DNA of 61,868 bases from Deltaproteobacteria bacterium. GTDB taxonomy: Bacteria; Desulfobacterota; Anaeroferrophillalia; Anaeroferrophillales; Tharpellaceae. The stretch spans positions 1 through 61,868 of the forward strand of contig DAOVTG010000001.1 in assembly GCA_030633185.1 (NCBI GenBank), given 5' to 3'. Shown in pieces: positions 27,079 to 53,074 of the stretch (its first letter is position 1; every line of letters starts with the position of its first letter). Both the position numbers and the translations under genes were made by a program. Below the pieces are notes generated by a model. It was given only the letters and a program-made list of their open reading frames with translations. It did not search any database and was not told where the DNA came from.

Positions 27079-29181
27079 TCAAACATAGGTGCTGATATCG
27101 CGGAAATTCAGTACCAGGATAGGTTTTCCGGTACCGACCACGGCGGTTCCGGTGAAGGTCTGGTTGTTTTTTAGAAATTCATGGTCAAATTGGGAGACCA
27201 CGACCTTGACTTTGAATTTAATACCATGAACACCACAGGCCAAGCGGCGTTGTTGTTCATCTTCAACGATAATGATGCGTTCAGATTTTTGCCCGTTAGT
27301 TACACAATTTAAAAACTGACCCATATCTATGAAGGGGAGCAAGGCTCCTCGGTAGTCAAAAAAATTGTTCTCCTGGAAAGATGAGAGGCTGATATCGTCA
27401 ACATTCATGACTTCCACCAGGGAGCAATATTCAATTCCATAGGCCTGGTCGCCGAGTTCAACCAGTTGTACATCTCTGGTTTGATTGCCCATATCCAGAG
27501 GCAAAAAGAGGTCAAGAACGGTACCCTCTCCAAAGGTCGAGGTGAGTTGCAGACGTCCACCGGCTGATTCAATCGTTGTGCGTACCACGTCCATACCGAC
27601 GCCGCGACCGGAAACACTGGTAACCTCTTTGTTGGTAGAAAAACCGGCGGCAAAAATCAATTGGTTTACGGCCTGGTCATCTAGGTTATCATCTGCCGTG
27701 ATCAACCCTTTAGAGATGGCCTTGGCTCTGATTTTGGCCGTATCGAGCCCCTTTCCATCATCTTTGATACTGATTTTCAGCAGATCGTCAGCCCGGCTGG
27801 CCAGGATTAACAACTTTCCCTGAGCTGGCTTGCCGCTGTTTTCCCGTTCCGTTGGGGTTTCGATACCGTGATCCACCGAGTTGCGGACGATATGAACCAG
27901 AGGATCATTAAGGGATTTGACCAGGCTGCGGGGTATTTCAATCTCTTCGCCGCCAAGTTCAACTGCAATATTTTTACCTAACTCCTCGGCAAGCTTGGAG
28001 ACTACCGAAGGCAGACGTTGAAAAACATCTCTCAAGCGGCGATTATTAAGGCTCGAGACTTTGGCTTCAAGATTGTTGACGTTATGATCAAGATCAGTAT
28101 AGCTATCTTTTAGATGTTTACGGTAGGTTGTTGGGATATGTTTGCCCATCTCCTGAACCAGATTTTCCAGGGTATTACGATTTGCCACCAGGGCGCCGAC
28201 ATTATGAGACACCTCTTCTAGGATCTTGCCCGGTACGCGGAAAAATTCCTCTTTTTCCGGTTGTTGTTTAGTCGTAGTTTCAGCTATTGACGAATCCACT
28301 TTTGCTTTGCTTTCGACCTCTTTTTCAGGCTCTTTTTCCTTCCAGGTAATCTCGGCATCTATGGCAATACCTTTTTCCCAAAAATAGGCAAAGGCTTGCT
28401 CTATGACCTCAGGCATGGTGTCATAGACATCAAAGAGGGTCTCCCATTCAAGCATTTTTTCACCATTGGTGAGGTCAGCCTGAAGACTCTTCTGGTCGCT
28501 GAAAAGCGAGACTATATCATATTTGGCAAAGAGATCTGCCGGGCCATTACGAGCCAGATCCTCAAGCACCGTCAGTTGTAGTTGTACCATCTTGGTGACA
28601 TCTTTGCCCGCCAGTATGACTTTTTCCAAATCCTTGAAATTAACTGCCAGTTGTTGTTGATCTGCGCCTGAAAGCTTGACCATTAAGGCTCTTATCTCGG
28701 TAACTGCCGGCAATAGAGTGTCGCTGCCGATTTCATTTTCATCAGTTGTGAGTCTATCCTTAAGTTCCTCTATCAAAGTGATAAAACTTTCCAGAGAGCC
28801 CTCTTCCTGGCGTAAGTCACTTAAGGCCTGCAAAGCTTCGGCATAAGTCGGCAGATGTAGAATGCCGGGATCGTCGGCCTCTTGTACGGCCTCGGTCATA
28901 AGATCCATACTGGTAAGCAGGGCCTCAGTCTCCGGCTGATTAAGACCATCCTTCATCTCCTGCTTGTCCCGGACAAAATCTTCTACTTTATGGACATATT
29001 GGGAAAAATCAAAGAGATCAAGAAAACTACTGGTTCCTTTAAGGGTATGAAGGCAGCGGAAAATGGCGTCAACTCCATTGGCGTCACATTCACCACTTCC
29101 CAACTCATCCCTGGCATCATCGAGCAGGGTGAGTGCTTCTTGCATAAAACCTTCTAGCAGTTGTGGGTCTACCTGGCTCAT
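27079..29181 (-). CDS. cheA: CheA-type histidine kinase, third paralogue (Hpt, long linker, dimerisation, HATPase_c, CheW-like)
   Basis: P1 FRCLHTLKGTSSFLD, P4 LVHIVRNSVDHGIE...GRGVGMDVV, C-terminal CheW-like P5. Confidence 0.8.
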   Translation of the reverse strand: MSQVDPQLLEGFMQEALTLLDDARDELGSGECDANGVDAIFRCLHTLKGTSSFLDLFDFSQYVHKVEDFVRDKQEMKDGLNQPETEALLTSMDLMTEAVQEADDPGILHLPTYAEALQALSDLRQEEGSLESFITLIEELKDRLTTDENEIGSDTLLPAVTEIRALMVKLSGADQQQLAVNFKDLEKVILAGKDVTKMVQLQLTVLEDLARNGPADLFAKYDIVSLFSDQKSLQADLTNGEKMLEWETLFDVYDTMPEVIEQAFAYFWEKGIAIDAEITWKEKEPEKEVESKAKVDSSIAETTTKQQPEKEEFFRVPGKILEEVSHNVGALVANRNTLENLVQEMGKHIPTTYRKHLKDSYTDLDHNVNNLEAKVSSLNNRRLRDVFQRLPSVVSKLAEELGKNIAVELGGEEIEIPRSLVKSLNDPLVHIVRNSVDHGIETPTERENSGKPAQGKLLILASRADDLLKISIKDDGKGLDTAKIRAKAISKGLITADDNLDDQAVNQLIFAAGFSTNKEVTSVSGRGVGMDVVRTTIESAGGRLQLTSTFGEGTVLDLFLPLDMGNQTRDVQLVELGDQAYGIEYCSLVEVMNVDDISLSSFQENNFFDYRGALLPFIDMGQFLNCVTNGQKSERIIIVEDEQQRRLACGVHGIKFKVKVVVSQFDHEFLKNNQTFTGTAVVGTGKPILVLNFRDISTYV

Positions 29182-32134: not shown

Positions 32135-34477
32135 TTATATCAGTTTATGGGTGTTGAGGATTAAAATCAGTCGTCCATTACCAAGGATTGAAACTCCGTT
32201 GAAAACATCAATATCTGCAAGCACAGGAGGTAAGGGTTTCATAACAATTTCCATGTTGCGAACAAATTTATCCACAATGATACCAAATTCGCTATCTTTG
32301 CTTCTGATAATCACCAGAAAAACCTCATCAAGCTCGTTGAGCTGTTGCCGTCTCCGCTGGCAATCTTTTCCTCCGGTTAACAGTGTGCTAACAAATGAGA
32401 CTGGAAGTACTTTATCACGGTAATGGAACAGCATATTTTCACCTGTACCACGAATTGAGGCCGGGTGAATTTTAATTGCCTCCACAACATTTTCAAATGG
32501 AAGCCCATAGTTGAGTCCGCAAATCTCAACTAGCAAAACCGTGCTAATGCCCATTGAGGCCGGAATTGTCAGGGTTAACAGTGAGCCTTTTCCCGGTTCG
32601 GAACTGACCTTTACATCCCCGTCAAGAGCGTCGATGGAGGAACGCACGACATCCATTCCCACGCCGCGACCGGAAAGATCTGTAGATTTGTCCATGGTAG
32701 AGAGCCCGGCTTTGAAGATAAGGGCAAGAATTTCCGGTTCATCCATACTCTCTACATCAATCCCGTCTTTTTTCGCCTTGGCCTTTAGTTTTTTCTGGTT
32801 AATACCAGCGCCGTCATCAATAATCCGAATAACAATATTACCGTTCTCCTGGCTGGCGGCCAGGGTAATAGTACCTTTCTCTGATTTGCCGGCGGCTCTG
32901 CGGACTTCGGGTGTTTCAATTCCATGATCGCAGGAGTTGCGAATAAGATGGATCATGGGGTCGGTAAGAGTGTCGGCCACTTTTTTATCAATTTCAGTCT
33001 CTTCACCCTGGAAAACAAGATCTATCTGTTTCTTCTTTTTTCTGGAAATATCACGAACAATACGGGTGAATTTTTGAAAAATAGTTTTAATCGGTACCAT
33101 CCGCAGATCCATGATGCCATGATGCATATCATTAACCAGCCGGGTAAAGTCGTGGAGGTTATCGCTTAATGCCTTCATCGCATCACCAGCAATTTTATCA
33201 TCAAGTCCGGCGAGCAGATACTCGTAAGAGTTCCTGCTTACCAACATCTCTCCAATCAGGTTCCCGAAGTTTTCAATCTTTGTTTCATCGACTTTCATAG
33301 TACGTATTTGATTGTTTTTTGAAAGAGCTTGCAAGTCTGCCGCTCCGGCTACTTCCATGATTTTTTGTTGTTGTAAAGCCCGGTCAATATCTGCGGGTTC
33401 AACTTTGCCCTGTTCCACCAGGATCTCTCCCAAAGCTTTCTGCTCTCCCAGCGCGGCATCCACATCTGCCCGGCTGATTTTGCCTTCTGCAACCAGTATC
33501 TCTCCAATTGGCTGTGGCCCTTTGACAAGGCCATCGGCAAAGTTAATAATCTCTTGCAAAGTTTCGAGAAAATCGGTTTCACTGATCTTTAGCATATCAT
33601 TTGCCAGATCAATAAGAAGGGCCAGGGTTGGTAATGAGATCTCCGCAAGAGCTGAAGATATATCGACCAAAGCCAGACTGATAATCTTTTGTTGCTCAGC
33701 GGATAAAGGTGAGATGTTGTTTTCAACAATGATGTCTCGTTGCCGGATAAGCGTTTCTATAAATGTTATCCTGACTTCGTACTCTTCCTTCGCCAGCAGG
33801 ACAAGACTTTCCTGGATCACGGGATCAACAAGCTCAGTTTGTACTCCTGAAATTTTAATTGATCGAAGTTTTTCTACGACCTCTGATTCAGGTTTTTTGC
33901 TGGCAAAAAGATCTTGCAAAGAGCTACCATAATTGACAATGGCATCAATGATTTTGTCAATCTCATGTCCGGTGGTCGAGAGATTACTGTTTTCCAGTTT
34001 CTCAATATCTTCATGGAACTCAGTCAAGGCAAGTTTGACACAAGAGTAGAAGATATGATCAAGCTTCAGCTCTTTGGATGATAAAAGTAAATCTTTTTCA
34101 TCTTGTTGATATGTGGCTTTAAACTGTTCAACAAGTTCAAGGTTGACTACCGGCGAATCACCAATGCTGGCTTTTTGGAGCATGTTTACAATGTAATCAT
34201 TACCTGACAGGGTTAAATCAATAATCTGTGAGGTAACGACAATTTTTTTATTGCGTAAAGCATCAAGCATCCCTTCAAGATGATGGGCAAAATCAGAGAC
34301 CGTTGAGAGGCCAAAAAAACCAGCTGTGCCTTTTACAGTGTGAATCCCTCGGAAAATGGCGTCAAGAATGGAGAGTTCCTCCGGGTTATTCTCAATGAGT
34401 AACAGGTCAGATGCAACTTTTTCTAAAATTTCATTTGATTCTTGAATAAATTCAAGTAATTCATTGTCAGGGTTCAT
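32135..34477 (-). CDS. cheA: CheA histidine kinase, second paralogue, with two tandem MshEN-like 24-25-aa repeats before the dimerisation domain
   Basis: P1 FRGIHTVKGTAGFFG; repeats PIGEILVAEGKISRADVDAALGEQ / ALGEILVEQGKVEPADIDRALQQQ; P4 MIHLIRNSCDHGIE...GRGVGMDVV; P5 CheW-like. Confidence 0.9.
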   Translation of the reverse strand: MNPDNELLEFIQESNEILEKVASDLLLIENNPEELSILDAIFRGIHTVKGTAGFFGLSTVSDFAHHLEGMLDALRNKKIVVTSQIIDLTLSGNDYIVNMLQKASIGDSPVVNLELVEQFKATYQQDEKDLLLSSKELKLDHIFYSCVKLALTEFHEDIEKLENSNLSTTGHEIDKIIDAIVNYGSSLQDLFASKKPESEVVEKLRSIKISGVQTELVDPVIQESLVLLAKEEYEVRITFIETLIRQRDIIVENNISPLSAEQQKIISLALVDISSALAEISLPTLALLIDLANDMLKISETDFLETLQEIINFADGLVKGPQPIGEILVAEGKISRADVDAALGEQKALGEILVEQGKVEPADIDRALQQQKIMEVAGAADLQALSKNNQIRTMKVDETKIENFGNLIGEMLVSRNSYEYLLAGLDDKIAGDAMKALSDNLHDFTRLVNDMHHGIMDLRMVPIKTIFQKFTRIVRDISRKKKKQIDLVFQGEETEIDKKVADTLTDPMIHLIRNSCDHGIETPEVRRAAGKSEKGTITLAASQENGNIVIRIIDDGAGINQKKLKAKAKKDGIDVESMDEPEILALIFKAGLSTMDKSTDLSGRGVGMDVVRSSIDALDGDVKVSSEPGKGSLLTLTIPASMGISTVLLVEICGLNYGLPFENVVEAIKIHPASIRGTGENMLFHYRDKVLPVSFVSTLLTGGKDCQRRRQQLNELDEVFLVIIRSKDSEFGIIVDKFVRNMEIVMKPLPPVLADIDVFNGVSILGNGRLILILNTHKLI

Positions 34478-36083: not shown

Positions 36084-39029
36084 TTACAATTTGGTTGTGT
36101 TTAATAATAAGATCAAGCGACCATCACCCATAATTGAAGCCCCGCTGATCTCTTCTATATGAGCCAGGGTCTGGGGTAGGGGTTTGACTGCTATTTCCAT
36201 GTTGCGGACAAAACGATCGACAATGAAACCGATGGTGGCGTTACCGATTTTAATGATTACCAGAGAAATTTCTTGAGCCGGATTCAGACAATCTCGATCC
36301 CGGTGTTTGTCCCCCGGTTGGGCTAAGCGATTTTCCAAAAAATCAACTTCGATGACCTGGCCCCGGTAATGAAAGATGAGTCCATCCCCTGCCTTACGCA
36401 GTTCGCTGGGCATAATTTTAATGGTTTCTAAGACATGCTCGAAAGGTAGACCGTAAGACTGGCCGCCTGCTTCAATCAGCAGAATCACAATGATTCCCAT
36501 AGTCATAGGGATGGTCATGGTAAGTTTCGTGCCCGTACCCTCCTCCGAACTCAGTTGGATATGACCGTTCAGCGAATCAATCGTCGAGCGCACGACATCC
36601 ATGCCCACTCCGCGACCGGAGATATTGGTGGCCTGATCCATCGTTGAGAGACCGGCATGAAAGATAAGACCAAGAACTGCGGCTTCATCCATGCCGTCAA
36701 CATCAATACCGGAGTTCATGGCTTTAGCTACAAGTTTCTCTTTATTGATTCCGGCCCCATCATCACTGATCTGGATTATAAGGTTACTACCGAGCTGACT
36801 TGCTGAAAGAGTTACCGTGCCTTTTTTCGCTTTGCCTGTCGCCTCGCGCACTGTCGGAGACTCTATACCATGATCGCAGGCGTTACGGATCAAGTGAATT
36901 AAAGGTTCGGATAGGGTGTCGGCCACCTTTTTGTCGACCTCGGTATCCTCGCCTTTAAGGATGAGTTGGATATCTTTTTTCTGTTTACGGGCGACGTCAC
37001 GAACCACCCGGGTATATTTTTGAAAAATCCCTCTGATCGGGATCATCCGCATGGCCATGATACCATGGTGCATATTTTCTACGAGCCGGGTAAAAAGATG
37101 TAGGTTTTCTTTTAAGGACTTGGTTTGAGCGGCAAGTTCCTGAGCACCATTTATATTCTCCAGGTTATTAATTAAATACTCATAGGAGTTACGTGCCACC
37201 AGAAGCTCACCAACGAGATTGGAGAACTCCTCGATTTTGAGTTCATCAACCCGCATGGTGTGGGTTTCTTTCTCAATCGCCCTGGGCTTCATGGTCTGGG
37301 CAACCTCCATCAGAACCTGTTTTTTCAGGGCTTGATTAACCTCGGCCTTTGCCAGCTTGCCTTGATCAACCAGGATTTCACCGACGGGTTTCTGTTGGGC
37401 CAGGGCTTGAGAGAGATCCTTTTTGCTGACCTTGCCTTGTTCCACAAGGATTTCTCCCAATGGCTTTTGCTGTTCCAGGGCTTCGCTCAAATCCTGGCCG
37501 CTGATCTTACCGTCGGCTACCAGAATTTCGCCCACCGGTTTGGGTTCGCCGGTCAAACCGTCGATGAAGCTGACAATTTCACCAATGGCAGTTACCAGAG
37601 AGGATTCATCTCTATCGAGTGAGTCATGGGCTCGGAGCAGTAGTTTTTTCATGGTTGGTAGATCCACAAAACTACCGGCCCGCTCAAGACCACTCAAGGA
37701 GCGGGTTATGATCTCTCGATCCTCAGAGGCCAGAGGCGAGTTGCTATGCCTGGCCAAAATATCTTTATGCTGCATAACCTGATCGAGAAAAACCTCACGC
37801 ATATCTTCAGGCAGGTTAGCTAGTTCATCCCCGCCGGCAGGGGTTTCATTTGCAGTGCTGTCACGCTCTCCGGCCATAGCCGCTAATTCCTTATAGCCCG
37901 CCGGAAACTCATGTACGGTTTCTCCCTTGGACAATGAGTTAATAAGAGATTTCAGGCCATCCACACCGACCAATAGGAGGTCTATAATCTCAGCATTTGG
38001 TTTAAGCTCGTTTTTGCGGAGACGTACCAGCAAACTTTCCAGAACATGGCCGAAACGGGTGGTTATTTCAAGCTGGAGGTAATCAGCATCGCCCTTGATG
38101 GTATGAGCTCCGCGAAAGAGCTCATCCAGAGCATCTTGGCAACCACTTTTTTCGTAATTGATAACGGCCCGTTCCATGACTTCAATATGCTCTACGGCAT
38201 CGCTTAAAAAGAGGGCAATATCCTCTTCGTCAATTACCGGCAGCAGCATATCGGTTTCGCTATCATCAGTTTCGGCATCGCTGATGTTCGCAGCTTCCAT
38301 TCCCCCTTTACTAACCGCTATCAGGGTCGAGGATAGATGTTCGAGTTCGGTTTGGAGTTCGGTCAGGGGCAGGTTTTCATGGACATCCAACTGTTTGAGC
38401 CGGGCCAGAGTTTTTTCGAGTTTGGCCCCGGCTGAAACTATGGCGCCCAGATCATAGATCTGGGCGCCAGCCACGATAATATGAATTTCGCTATAAAGAT
38501 CATCAAGCAGATCCTGGTTTTGCGAATCGCTCTCAAGCTGGTCGAGGAACTTTCGGGCGGAGACCAAGGCGTCACTGGCCTCACTTATGAACTCTGTCGG
38601 GACGGCAGTTTTTTCACTCTCCTCTTTTTGGGGATTGGGAAAAGAGTTGCTACTTGGTGTTTTCTGGTAGGCGTCACGAAATTGAGTCACTAATTCATCG
38701 TCGCCGACCGGTTCCTCGTCATTTTCAAAAGCCTTAAGCATCAGGCTGATGCGATCAATTCCGGCCAAAATCAGATCTGCAATTTCAGGTTCCAGTTCGA
38801 CCTGATCTTTGCGCAAAGCATCGAGCAGACCTTCAAGGTGATGAGCAAAGCCGGAGACCGCATTTACCTCGAAAGTTCCGGCATTACCCTTGATGGTATG
38901 GATAGAACGAAAGATGGAGTGCATAACATCTTTGTCATCCGGGTTGGCCTCGGCCTGGAGGATATCATCGCTGGCTTTTTCCAGCAACTCTCGCGCCTCC
39001 TCTAAAAATTCTTTTTTAAAATCGTCCAT
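36084..39029 (-). CDS. cheA: CheA histidine kinase, first paralogue, with two Hpt domains and three tandem MshEN-like repeats
   Basis: Hpt1 FRSIHTIKGNAGTF and Hpt2 FRGAHTIKGDADYL; three 25-aa repeats P[VL]GEILVxxGKxxxxxxxxALxxQ; P4 LIHLIRNACDHGIE...GRGVGMDVV; P5. The ATG at 39029 (MDDFKKEF) is 2 nt after the cheY stop; the tracked TTG at 39038 is the alternative. Confidence 0.9.
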   Translation of the reverse strand: MDDFKKEFLEEARELLEKASDDILQAEANPDDKDVMHSIFRSIHTIKGNAGTFEVNAVSGFAHHLEGLLDALRKDQVELEPEIADLILAGIDRISLMLKAFENDEEPVGDDELVTQFRDAYQKTPSSNSFPNPQKEESEKTAVPTEFISEASDALVSARKFLDQLESDSQNQDLLDDLYSEIHIIVAGAQIYDLGAIVSAGAKLEKTLARLKQLDVHENLPLTELQTELEHLSSTLIAVSKGGMEAANISDAETDDSETDMLLPVIDEEDIALFLSDAVEHIEVMERAVINYEKSGCQDALDELFRGAHTIKGDADYLQLEITTRFGHVLESLLVRLRKNELKPNAEIIDLLLVGVDGLKSLINSLSKGETVHEFPAGYKELAAMAGERDSTANETPAGGDELANLPEDMREVFLDQVMQHKDILARHSNSPLASEDREIITRSLSGLERAGSFVDLPTMKKLLLRAHDSLDRDESSLVTAIGEIVSFIDGLTGEPKPVGEILVADGKISGQDLSEALEQQKPLGEILVEQGKVSKKDLSQALAQQKPVGEILVDQGKLAKAEVNQALKKQVLMEVAQTMKPRAIEKETHTMRVDELKIEEFSNLVGELLVARNSYEYLINNLENINGAQELAAQTKSLKENLHLFTRLVENMHHGIMAMRMIPIRGIFQKYTRVVRDVARKQKKDIQLILKGEDTEVDKKVADTLSEPLIHLIRNACDHGIESPTVREATGKAKKGTVTLSASQLGSNLIIQISDDGAGINKEKLVAKAMNSGIDVDGMDEAAVLGLIFHAGLSTMDQATNISGRGVGMDVVRSTIDSLNGHIQLSSEEGTGTKLTMTIPMTMGIIVILLIEAGGQSYGLPFEHVLETIKIMPSELRKAGDGLIFHYRGQVIEVDFLENRLAQPGDKHRDRDCLNPAQEISLVIIKIGNATIGFIVDRFVRNMEIAVKPLPQTLAHIEEISGASIMGDGRLILLLNTTKL

Positions 39030-39030
39030 C

Positions 39031-39387
39031 TCAACCAACCAGCATCTTTACATGTAAAACCAGGGTATTAGGTTTAACCGGCTTGACGATATAAAGATTG
39101 GCTCCGGCCAGGATAGCTTTCTCCTTGTTGGCGGCCTCGGCCTGGGTCGAGATCATGATGATTGGCGTCTCATTATCACTTTGTCGATATTTCTCGACAA
39201 AAACAATACCATCCATATTGGGCATATTGATATCCGAGAGGATAAGATCGTACTTATTGCTCAGGGCTTTTTCCAGAGCTTCGACCCCGTCCATGGCTCC
39301 ATCCGCTTTAAAACCGGCAGCTTTAAGCAAATTTGTATGAAAATTCCTGACAAAACGGGAATCGTCAACTACGAGTACTTTTTTCAT
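39031..39387 (-). CDS. cheY: Chemotaxis response regulator CheY
   Basis: 118 aa, VLVVDDSRFVR, LILSDINMPNMDG, VKP. Confidence 0.9.
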   Translation of the reverse strand: MKKVLVVDDSRFVRNFHTNLLKAAGFKADGAMDGVEALEKALSNKYDLILSDINMPNMDGIVFVEKYRQSDNETPIIMISTQAEAANKEKAILAGANLYIVKPVKPNTLVLHVKMLVG

Positions 39388-49685: not shown

Positions 49686-49768
49686 GGTGAATGATATATA
49701 GTTATGGGATCTTTTTACCTGTCGACTTGCCGTCGACTTGTCTTGGCTCAGAGAGTAAGGAGTTTTTA

Positions 49769-50185
49769 ATGGAATTTTTCGAGTGGTTGGACAGTTATTC
49801 AATTCATAATCCCAATATTGATGCTGAGCATCAAATTTTTATCAAGTTGATTAACAGGTTGATTTCCGCAAATAATGATGGCCTGGACGACTATTACAAA
49901 GAACGTCTGAGTCTGGAAATTCAAAAATATGCCGAGTTTCATTTTGTCAGTGAAGAAAATTTTATGATTGATATCGACTATCCTTTACTGGAGGAACACC
50001 AACAACAGCATACTTTAATTCTGGAAAAGTTTAATGTTGAGATGAATTATATTGAGCTCGGCCAAAAGAGTTATGCGGAATTTATAACCTTTTTGGTTGA
50101 TTGGCTTACAGAACATACGCTTACGCAGGACAAAAAAATCGGTGATTTTGTTAAAGAGAGCAGTGACCCGAATGGTAGTCGGTAA
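49769..50185 (+). CDS. Hemerythrin-like (bacteriohemerythrin) metal-binding protein
   Basis: [22 protein letters not shown]...FHFVSEE...HQQQH...[10 protein letters not shown] gives the His/Glu/Asp ligand pattern. AAGGAG RBS. The stop overlaps the next ATG (TAATG). Confidence 0.8.
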
Positions 50186-51804
50186 TGAACGATAATTTTC
50201 CTTGTAAAACTTTGCTGATTTTAAGTGATCATCCTGAAAATATGGAGCTTTTAGGAGATGCTTTAAAGGATGAATATTGCATTGTTAAAGAGGAACTCGA
50301 CCGTAATGGTCTAAAGAATCCTTCCCCCTTGGCGAAGGCGGATTTAATTCTTTTAGACACCAATTTGATGGGCCGTAATGGTTTAGATCTTCACTGCTGG
50401 TTGCAGGAAGTTCCGGGAATAGAGCAGGTTCCGGTTATGATTCTCTCGGCTCTTAATCACGAGGAGGATATTGTTGCGGGTTTTGCGGCCGGGGCGGTTG
50501 ATTACATAGCCAAGCCTTATAAGCTTTCAATTATGAGAGCCCGGGTCAAAACTCAGTTTAAACTTTTGCACGCCTTAGAGATTGCCGAGCAGGCCAATCA
50601 GGCAAAAAGCGAATTTTTGGCCAATATGAGTCATGAAATACGGACTCCGCTCAATGCCATAATCGGTATGAACCATTGTGCTCTGGAGTCGTCGCCTCCG
50701 GACAATGTCAGGAGTTTTTTAGAAAATGTAAAAATCTCGGCTGATTCGCTTCTCGCGGTTGTCAATGATGTTCTCGATTTTTCCAAGATAGAAGCGGGTC
50801 GGCTTGAGTTGTTAGAGAGGCCGTTTGATTTGGCCTGCTTAATAGAAGAACTTCTGGAAACATACTCGGTTGGCGCGAAAGAGAGAGGCAACCAGATTGT
50901 CCAGGAGGTCGACAGCCACATCTTTCAGGCATTGATCGGCGATGACCACAGATTGCGCCAGGTTCTGGTTAATCTGATCAGTAATGCGGTAAAATTTACT
51001 GAAAACGGTAAAATTATTCTTGGGGTTTTTATCAAACAGGAATCCGAGACTGAGATTCTACTGCAATTTAAAGTCTCTGATACCGGTATAGGTATACCTC
51101 TTGAGGTTCAGAACAGTATATTCAAGAGCTTTACTCAGGCTGATTCGACGATCACCAGGCGCTACGGTGGTACTGGTCTGGGGTTGGCAATTTGTCAACA
51201 GTTGGTTCAGTTGATGGGAGGTAGTATCGGGCTTGAAAGTCGTTCCGGGGTTGGCAGTACCTTCTCTTTTACGGCTCAATTTAAGAAAGCTCTCCCGGAA
51301 ACGTGCCCGGCTGAAGTTGAAGGATCTCTTGACGAGTCGGTGTTTCTAACTCCCTTACGCATCCTTGTGGTTGAAGATAACCAGTTCAATCGGGAATTGG
51401 TCCAGTTTCTTCTTGAAAAAGAGGGGCACCAGGTAACGACGGTTGAAGATGGGCTTAAAGCGTTGGAAAGCCTGATGCTGGATAGTTTTGACGCTGTTTT
51501 AATGGATGTCCAGATGCCGGAGATGGATGGAATTACGGCCACGAAATTTATCCGGGATTGTGAAAAAAGTAGTCTCGATGATCGTTCTCCTCATCAGAAA
51601 ATTGGGGCTCGGCTTACGACAAAAATTAAAGGGGGTCGCATCCCGGTTATCGCGATGACCGCCCATGCCATGTCCGGTGATCGTGATAAATGTTTAGAGG
51701 CCGGTATGGATGACTATATTACCAAACCTTACCAGCCGGATGAGATTTTCAAAGTACTCAGACGAGTTTTAGCATGCGAGGTACAAAATGGGAAATCTGA
51801 TTGA
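50185..51804 (+). CDS. Hybrid histidine kinase (REC-HisKA-HATPase_c-REC)
   Basis: N-terminal REC ([13 protein letters not shown]...AKP), H-box [15 protein letters not shown]-boxes, C-terminal REC ([11 protein letters not shown]...[11 protein letters not shown]...TKP). Confidence 0.85.
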
Positions 51805-53074
51805 TGATGGCCATGCGGTCATGAAAAAAATCCTTTTGGTTGAAGATAACCGTTTCTTCGGAGCGATGTTGATCCGGAAATTTGCCAAAGAGAGTGATCT
51901 GGAGATTGTCTGGGCGCAAAGTTTGAGCGAAAGCCGCGATATTTTGGCTTCCGGTGAGCATGTTTTTTTTGCGGCGATTCTCGATTTCAATCTTCCTGAT
52001 GCTCCTCGGGGTGAGGTTATTGTAGAGGTTATAGCTCATAGTATACCGGTTCTTGTCTTTACTGCCAGCAGTGATGCCGTAGTTCGGGATAAGGTTTGGT
52101 CTTACAATGTTGTCGACTATGTTTTCAAAGATGATGCTCAAAGTCTTGAGTATCTAATCTATTTGATCCGTCGTCTTGAGAAGAACCAACAAACCAAGGT
52201 TATGGTGGTTGATGATTCATCTTTTTTCCGCAAGGTTTTGGTCGATCTTTTAGAGACTCATCAATTCCAAGTTCTATCTGCCTCGGACGGAAAGGCGGCT
52301 CTTGCCTTGTTTGAAGAGCACCCTGATATTAAGTTGGTACTGACCGATTTTGAGATGCCTGAATTGACTGGTCTTGAGTTGACCCGGAAACTACGGCAAC
52401 GCTATCGTCGTGACGAATTGGTGATTATCGGTATTTCTGCGGCCGGAGACCAGATGGTGGCGGCCAGTTTTATAAAAAACGGGGCTAATGATTTTATTGT
52501 CAAGCAGACCTTTATGACCGAAGAGTTCTACAGTCGGATTACGCAAAATATTGAGAATGTTGAACGCGCCCAGATGATCCTTGAGATGTCGATCAAAGAT
52601 CATCTGACCGGACTCTATAATCGTCGTTATCTCTTTGAGGCCGGGATTCAGTTTTTTGACCGGGCGCGGCGGCAGAAAACGACGATTGTTTGTGCTATGC
52701 TTGACATCGACCATTTCAAAAGGGTCAACGACAATTATGGTCACGATGTCGGCGATTTGGTTTTGCGTCGGTTAGGGGAGGTTTTGCAGGATAATTTTCG
52801 CACCACCGATATCGTTGCCCGCTTCGGCGGGGAAGAGTTTTGTGTTCTGGCAGTTGATCTTGATGAGAGTGGTGCGGTTAAACTTTTTGAGAGGTTGCGA
52901 GAGAAAGTTAAGCACCAAACTTTTACAACCGCAAAGGGTGAAAACCTTTCCGTTACCATTAGCATCGGAATTTGCACGGAACTCAAAGACAATCTGGAGC
53001 AGATGATCAAAACGGCGGATGAACGACTCTATGAAGCAAAAGAGGGTGGTCGTAACCGGGTTGTGGCGGAATGA
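51788..53074 (+). CDS. PleD-like response regulator diguanylate cyclase (REC-REC-GGDEF)
   Basis: Two receiver domains and a GGDEF domain with GGEEF active site and [16 protein letters not shown] before the ATG at 51788. Confidence 0.85.

Follow-up and report, generated by a model that had tools for sequence, protein, structure and literature searches.

A compact MshEN-like motif pair upstream of the dimerisation domain in a deltaproteobacterial CheA kinase

The CheA2 kinase and its motif pair

This study concerns a 49-residue motif pair in CheA2, a chemotaxis histidine kinase encoded in a 61,868-nucleotide stretch of DNA (the window) from a deltaproteobacterium of the Tharpellaceae (contig DAOVTG010000001.1, assembly GCA_030633185.1). 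The cheA2 gene occupies positions 32135-34477 of the minus strand, on which all CheA2 features described below lie, and its open reading frame translates into a CheA-type kinase of 780 residues with the order P1 (Hpt), unassigned region, conserved helical region, two-unit module, P3, P4 and P5. Pfam assigns P1 to residues 9-101 (34175-34453; Hpt, E 1.8e-12), where the phospho-accepting His sits in an H-T-V-K-G context, and the P3 dimerisation domain to residues 392-457 (33107-33304; H-kinase_dim, E 4.9e-8). P4 and P5 follow at 32138-32959, as HATPase_c (residues 507-640, E 4e-17), in which the N, G1, F and G2 boxes are legible, and a CheW-like domain (residues 647-780, E 1e-17). We classify the protein as a CheA because Pfam finds Hpt, H-kinase_dim, HATPase_c and CheW, that is, an Hpt domain with its His and P3, P4 and P5 in the expected order. 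A P2 response-regulator-binding domain gave no Pfam match in CheA2, where residues 120-325 are free of any Pfam family, and P2 was likewise not detected by Pfam in eight module-bearing CheA homologues. P2 is divergent and optional among CheAs, however, and its absence does not exclude membership of this family.

The module spans residues 323-371 (33365-33511) and consists of two 24-residue motifs separated by a single Lys: unit 1 at residues 323-346 (33440-33511), the spacer K347 (33437-33439) and unit 2 at residues 348-371 (33365-33436), with scores of 38.6 and 37.7 bits for the two units against a single-unit hidden Markov model (HMM). Its minus-strand translation gives exactly the 49 residues quoted in an original prediction made from the DNA letters alone, which had also placed the pair directly before the dimerisation domain. 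The position upstream of P3 holds, but only approximately so, as a 20-residue linker (residues 372-391; 33305-33364) lies in between. Directly upstream of the module, BLASTP against the neighbouring paralogue CheA1 delineates a conserved helical region of about 95 residues (residues 228-322; 33512-33796), the counterpart of CheA1 residues 406-500, for which Pfam holds no family. On the opposite strand, a 206-residue antisense frame (33312-33932, plus strand) overlaps the module region; it is an open frame only.

Homology to MshEN and the compact spacing

The c-di-GMP (cyclic diguanylate)-binding domain MshEN is defined by two tandem copies of the pattern (R/K/L)LGxx(L/V/I)(L/V/I)xxG(L/V/I)(L/V/I)xxxxLxxxLxxQ (PMC5013675; PMC11731258). 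Both CheA2 units match this 24-residue motif at positions 2, 3, 6, 7, 10, 12, 17, 21 and 24, and the corresponding residues (L2, G3, L6, V7, G10, hydrophobic residues at 12 and 17, L21, Q24) are kept in both units and across 55 homologues; the terminal Gln is invariant in unit 2 and present in unit 1 of 50 of the 55. In the characterised proteins L2, G3, L6/V7, G10, L17, L21 and Q24 are ligand-contacting or turn-forming positions, and the side chain of the terminal Gln has a role in ligand binding, not in packing (PMC5013675; PMC11731258). In CheA2 positions 3 and 24 are G325/G350 and Q346/Q371, and exchanging their counterparts in MshE and PilF abolishes binding.

When the single CheA2 segment was compared with the sequences of solved structures using phmmer, Thermus PilF was the sole significant match (2.3e-7); the nine best matches were all of MshEN type, the other GSPII and MshE chains scoring 0.009-0.23, with MshE itself at 0.23 (not significant). 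A profile built from 55 two-unit CheA segments retrieved PilF as its best match (1e-28), MshE (PDB 5HTL) at 4.4e-10 and, among four PilB entries, 1.1e-9, 1.3e-9 and 2.6e-5, while nothing unrelated among the solved structures scored below 0.27. Because the CheA profile finds only MshEN-type c-di-GMP-binding domains among solved structures, the sequence-based homology of the module to the N-terminal four-helix subdomain of MshEN (MshEN_N) is solid, in line with the MshEN-like character originally proposed. A six-frame scan of the window (72,805 residues) with the single-unit HMM returned only five scoring units, with independent E-values from 3e-8 to 2e-11 and above 2 for everything else; this HMM was built partly from window sequences, and the searches against solved structures are independent of it. 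The likeness is visible only at the level of motif and profile, as BLASTP of CheA2 against the N-terminus of the genome's own PilB-type ATPase gave no alignment. In the ESM Atlas, the segment matched nothing but CheA fragments, none of which reached the useful score range. The ParP-binding LID domain of Vibrio-type CheA was considered and rejected, as LID consists of EFExLLD repeats and has a different sequence.

The Pfam model PF05157, named 'MshEN' (T2SSE_N), did not match CheA2, neither as a whole protein nor, even at E 10, as the isolated segment, and a six-frame search of the genome with PF05157 likewise missed the module, though it found four traffic ATPases. We first took this miss as evidence against MshEN, and the original prediction had named failure against MshEN-family profiles as an outcome that would refute it. 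We dropped this argument, as PF05157 models the C-terminal subdomain only: in the PilB-type ATPase of the genome the PF05157 match begins right after the final Gln of the second motif (L001:1501-1758), and in two motif-bearing proteins (P0148 and P0153) from a library of 1.84 billion proteins, of which the motif profile matches 20,418 representatives, it lies apart from the motif arrays. The model therefore misses the CheA2 module, which has no such subdomain, and the failure against PF05157, though real, is uninformative. At the module itself the Pfam scan of CheA2 gave only weak matches to DUF4388, FumaraseC_C and 3HCDH; glycosyltransferase- and peptidase-linked motif arrays give similar weak DUF4388 and FumaraseC_C matches. 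The result is an annotation blind spot: the c-di-GMP-binding subdomain lies outside Pfam's MshEN model, and such modules go unannotated.

Compared with its orthologue, the module shows 12 synonymous and 3 non-synonymous differences, corresponding to a ratio of non-synonymous to synonymous substitution rates (dN/dS) of 0.06, a value from a small sample, versus 0.146 for the whole cheA2 gene and about 0.10 for P3 and P4. The module is thus under purifying selection, as had been suspected, and the small sample is consistent with strong constraint. AlphaFold2, given a 59-residue module segment with the 55-sequence alignment, predicts four helices arranged as two helix-turn-helix units, with a three-residue loop joining helices 2 and 3 and a predicted local distance difference test score (pLDDT) of 91.4. 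The sequence data are best explained by a compact, CheA-specific version of MshEN_N, made up of two helix-turn-helix units and one Lys and lacking the C-terminal subdomain of MshEN.

What sets this version apart is its spacing. The spacer is Lys in 52 of the 55 two-unit CheA homologues, and 79 of 82 unit pairs in CheA homologues are 25 residues apart from start to start. Binding prototypes have 5-7 residues between motifs, with 5 in MshE (PMC5013675); the alignments of PilF and PilB to the CheA profile need 4-6 inserted residues at the spacer, and the PilB-type ATPase of the genome follows the canonical 24+5+24 arrangement. The arrangement reported for MshEN, to which the pair had been likened, is therefore reproduced as a motif pair, but with a spacer of one residue instead of five. 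Beyond the CheAs already in hand, we surveyed the 147 best-scoring library proteins, mostly multi-motif proteins of other architectures: their units are mainly 29 (109 cases), 31 (45) or 30 (31) residues apart, and a distance of 25 occurs in two of the 147, one a CheA and one without a defining domain.

The survey also brought up multi-unit proteins in unexpected contexts. Many units with a 29-31 residue period are found in P0126, P0131, P0144 and P0155; one protein of 1162 residues combines 11 units with weak Hpt, TSP3 and dockerin matches, and the remaining ones are a family-2 glycosyltransferase, a C39 peptidase and a 1492-residue protein with five DUF4388 domains.

Gene neighbourhood and copy number

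CheA2 is part of a chemotaxis cluster encoded entirely on the minus strand. The cluster starts with a ParA-like ATPase, a TPR protein, Hsp70 and a methyl-accepting chemotaxis protein with two signalling domains, continues with a triple CheW with a CZB insert, CheB, a HEAT protein, CheR and CheY, and ends with CheA1, a HEAT-REC protein, CheA2, a REC protein, CheV, a small kinase, an Hpt protein, a further REC protein and CheA3; at least six of its products contain REC domains. CheA1, the neighbouring upstream paralogue (984 residues; 36084-39038, minus strand), carries a three-unit module at residues 501-574 (37317-37538, minus strand), recognised by the motif pattern and by the single-unit HMM, whose units start at residues 501, 526 and 551 in the same register as in CheA2. 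In the third CheA, encoded by cheA3 (27079-29181, minus strand), no module was found by regular expression or by single-unit HMM. The differing copy numbers of the two neighbouring genes and the lack of the module in the third are thus as originally described.

Divergent from the ParA-like head of the cluster lies an operon on the plus strand (49691-53074) that encodes a hemerythrin, a hybrid histidine kinase and a REC-REC-GGDEF diguanylate cyclase (51788-53074, plus strand; Pfam), whose GGEEF site and RxxD I-site are intact. By its genomic context, this operon is a possible local source of c-di-GMP. The genome, surveyed as a 2.47-Mb assembly of 294 contigs at 94.6% completeness, contains 10 GGDEF and 6 PilZ matches, indicating that the organism uses c-di-GMP; EAL had no match in this 94.6%-complete assembly. 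It also encodes a fourth CheA, cut by a contig end (L011:745-2484; contig C176), whose two motifs before P3 are separated by a spacer of 13 residues and whose second unit is degenerate, Lys replacing the turn Gly. The best named homologues of CheA2 come from Desulfobacterales and Desulfobacterota metagenome bins, and the homologues also include a CheA of Maridesulfovibrio.

We counted units with the single-unit HMM in 122 CheAs, comprising the three of the window and 119 homologues retrieved with the module-containing region, a set that is biased to module carriers. Two units are present in 104 of them, three in ten, one in seven and none in one, CheA3. Among 151 evenly sampled genomes of the phylum, at least 61 encode a CheA in which module and P3 are contiguously aligned, so that a large group of CheAs ordinarily has two units before P3. 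The copy number of CheA2 had been read as a sign of functional differentiation among the kinases; with two units being ordinary, it is not by itself such a mark.

CheA2 and CheA1 are 51% identical over 580 residues (BLASTP), and in their alignment the first two units of CheA1 pair in order with the two of CheA2, while the third unit of CheA1 stands opposite a clean gap of 25 residues. In a maximum-likelihood tree calculated from the sequence after the last unit only, so that unit number has no influence, the CheA2 lineage, consisting of CheA2, an orthologue of 89% identity and another of 53%, is sister to the CheA1 lineage, and the two group within a clade in which every other member has three units (supports 100/98, 96/91 and 99/94). 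Two changes on this tree account for the pattern: the three-unit state was gained once by the ancestor of the clade and lost once in CheA2. It had been asked whether the third repeat of CheA1 arose by internal duplication; because CheA2 is nested within the three-unit clade, it is CheA2 that lost a unit and not CheA1 that gained one. The sequences indicate that CheA2 arose by tandem duplication of a three-unit CheA and later lost one 25-residue period. With unit-specific HMMs, CheA2 unit 1 falls into the first or middle class and unit 2 scores equally as middle or last; unequal crossing-over may have deleted the period and left a chimeric unit behind.

The tandem of a three-unit CheA1 and a two-unit CheA2 recurs on two other contigs. 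In a relative (GCA_015486365.1; L005:10001-16453) the gene order is the same, but the HEAT-REC gene is followed by cheV, without CheA2 and without the REC gene that follows it here, so that CheA2 and this REC gene behave as a removable unit. A bin of Desulfobacterota bacterium M19 (L007:5288-6979; also L008) encodes a CheA of 563 residues with a single unit directly before P3, adjoining an 880-residue CheA with three units. As one ligand needs two motifs, one may ask whether the units of such a CheA pair across the dimer.

A possible c-di-GMP input into CheA2 and its alternatives

c-di-GMP reaches chemotaxis via receptors, CheR adaptors, CheY-like proteins and the motor. Its routes to chemotaxis or to kinases include PilZ chemoreceptors (Cbp1), CheY-like Cle proteins, MapZ-CheR1, CckA and SgmT, which use PilZ, Arg-rich peptides, or sites in catalytic or GGDEF domains. 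To our knowledge, none of these uses an MshEN_N module inside CheA. As a kind, the MshEN-CheA fusion is already known since 2016, when Wang et al. noted that MshEN associates with CheA (PMC5013675). The Aeromonas CheA that they list (Supplementary Table 4; PMC5013675) resembles CheA2 in that the insertion lies immediately before P3 and is a predicted c-di-GMP receptor, but differs in having a spacer of about 9 residues (published alignment) and a P2 domain, whereas CheA2 combines a 1-residue spacer with no detectable P2 and is encoded in a cluster that has several CheAs, a receptor with two signalling domains and a triple CheW. The fourth CheA of the genome resembles this long-spacer Aeromonas type more than the compact one. 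In the literature we found no binding experiment for the Aeromonas CheA or for CheA2. What appears to be new is the CheA-specific 25-residue period with its Lys spacer, the direction of the copy-number change and the explanation of the Pfam miss.

We consider it plausible, with a probability of roughly 45%, that the motif pair binds c-di-GMP and thereby directly tunes CheA2 autophosphorylation, a prediction drawn from sequence. The two units would close around one c-di-GMP per protomer, as in MshE and PilF, and ligand binding would order the module next to P3, altering either the P1-to-P4 reach, set by the tether between P1 and the P3-P4 core, or the geometry of P3. In an AlphaFold2 model of 154 residues that includes P3 (residues 310-463), a helix extends over model positions 52-79, with low confidence over 74-81, and the last module helix is accordingly predicted to continue through most of the linker towards P3; as this helix leads towards P3, we propose that ligand binding would change the tether and so autophosphorylation. 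c-di-GMP might in this way tune CheA2 in the chemosensory array, and CheA paralogues with three, two or no units might respond differently. In MshEN the ligand is bound by two motifs together (PMC5013675), and the four-helix subdomain on its own suffices for binding (350 nM for MshEN_N, PMC5013675; 54 nM for PilF159-221, PMC11731258). For c-di-GMP to bind in these proteins, the first helical turn has to unfold, and binding brings order to the bundle (PMC11731258).

Of the two prototypes, MshE of Vibrio cholerae (MshEN_N; PDB 5HTL; PMC5013675) shares with CheA2 the tandem 24-residue helix-turn-helix motifs with L2, G3, L6, V7, G10, L17, L21 and Q24, but is a traffic ATPase with an MshEN_C subdomain, whereas CheA2 is a kinase without MshEN_C for which binding is predicted from sequence; it further differs by its period of 29 and its Arg at position 1 of the motif, compared to 25 and Pro or Ala in CheA2. 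In Thermus PilF, the GSPII-C domain contains three motifs; its motif II begins with Pro (position 1) and its motif I carries Lys at position 11, and both residues recur in the CheA modules of the window. The PilF domains differ in their spacers, which exceed the Lys spacer of the CheAs by 4-6 residues, in having the C-terminal subdomain and in regulating a pilus ATPase.

Several observations weigh against c-di-GMP binding. The MshEN_N layout, with a spacer of about 5 and 53 residues in total, is not that of CheA2, with 1 and 49, and judging from our survey the 25-residue period is essentially confined to CheAs; with a spacer of 1 compared to 5-7 in every prototype shown to bind, the connection between helix 2 and helix 3 must differ from that of the solved complexes. 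Position 1 holds the guanine-stacking Arg in MshE, but Pro (unit 1) and Ala (unit 2) in CheA2. Most members of the CheA family have Arg or Lys at this position of unit 1, and one of Arg, Pro and Lys in unit 2, where Ala occurs in only two of 55 homologues, CheA2 and its orthologue; CheA2 thus falls outside R/K/L, and the relaxed pattern of Wang et al. (PMC5013675) permits Pro, but not Ala. Position 11 is Lys in both CheA2 units instead of hydrophobic. In the 154-residue model the module reaches a pLDDT of only 60-72, and a Foldseek search of the PDB with the 59-residue all-helical module, a weak query, returned neither MshE nor PilF and nothing below E 4; the 154-residue model matched the CheA P3 of 1b3q and 4xiv at E 0.38, which is not significant, and otherwise unrelated helical hairpins. 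Taken together, these models lean slightly against a bundle identical to that of MshEN. There is also a precedent for a homologue, XpsE, that kept the fold and lost binding (PMC5013675). Our literature searches found no experiment on c-di-GMP binding by, or action on, any CheA, and the main text of a c-di-GMP screen of the V. cholerae ORFeome does not mention CheA, although the motif was not checked in the V. cholerae CheAs.

Some of these points lose weight in the light of PilF. GSPII-B has Lys and Leu at position 1 and yet binds c-di-GMP at 6 nM (PMC11731258), and GSPII-C, with Pro at this position in motif II, also binds (PMC11731258). Arg at position 1 is dispensable. For position 11, the alignment shows that motif I of GSPII-C likewise has Lys.

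A serious possibility is that the module keeps the helical-hairpin fold of MshEN_N but binds no nucleotide, and instead, adjacent to P3, serves as a rigid spacer or for protein-protein docking; it might, for example, position P1 or recruit REC proteins of the cluster to a kinase without detectable P2. The 1-residue spacer, unlike that of any domain shown to bind, the missing Arg at position 1 of both units, the lack of an MshEN match in Foldseek and the precedent of XpsE (PMC5013675) would all fit this explanation, as would the lack of a detectable P2 in CheA2 and the eight homologues in a cluster so rich in REC proteins. It sits less well with conservation, since the positions kept in 55 homologues, including G3, G10 and the terminal Gln, are c-di-GMP contacts in MshE and PilF, and since non-binders of the XpsE type lost the ligand-contacting Gly and Gln residues that CheA2 kept. 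Moreover, the Aeromonas CheA of the 2016 listing carries P2 and module together, indicating that the module is not simply a P2 substitute. GGDEF domains are present in 148 of the 151 sampled genomes of the phylum, so that their co-occurrence with the module cannot separate binding from non-binding readings.

That the compact module binds another ligand, for instance 3',3'-cyclic GMP-AMP, with spacer and position 1 having retuned its specificity, seems improbable. The 25-residue period, the Lys spacer and the frequent Pro at position 1 do form a consistent, selected deviation from the prototype, and the site tolerates base changes, as PilF GSPII-B also binds cyclic di-IMP at 60 nM (PMC11731258); however, neither the backbone positions that contact guanine (G3 and x4) nor the Leu clusters have changed. 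The idea that an amphipathic helical linker resembles the motifs by chance or composition, for which one could cite that a loose one-motif regular expression matches 2% of shuffled CheA2 sequences and that Pfam offers only weak DUF4388 and FumaraseC_C matches, is effectively refuted: the two units adjoin in exact register, the family profile matches MshEN-type structures only (E-values of 1e-28 to 1e-9), no more than five units score in the translated window, and the module is conserved across the phylum and at the level of dN/dS.

A wider claim, that the module with its 25-residue period and Lys spacer represents a distinct, CheA-specific class of cyclic-dinucleotide sensor through which c-di-GMP acts directly on array kinases, strikes us as rather unlikely on present evidence. 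If it were true, paralogues with one, two and three units within one array would differ in stoichiometry, odd unit numbers might bind across the CheA dimer, and the deletion of a unit, as in CheA2, would retune the sensitivity to the second messenger after gene duplication. The window provides a natural comparison set for such effects, with CheA paralogues of three, two and no units in one operon. Should the compact version not bind, the spacer would emerge as a determinant of MshEN_N function and call for caution in motif-based receptor prediction; should it bind c-di-GMP, the module-bearing CheAs would constitute a large and unstudied class of chemotaxis kinases gated by a second messenger.

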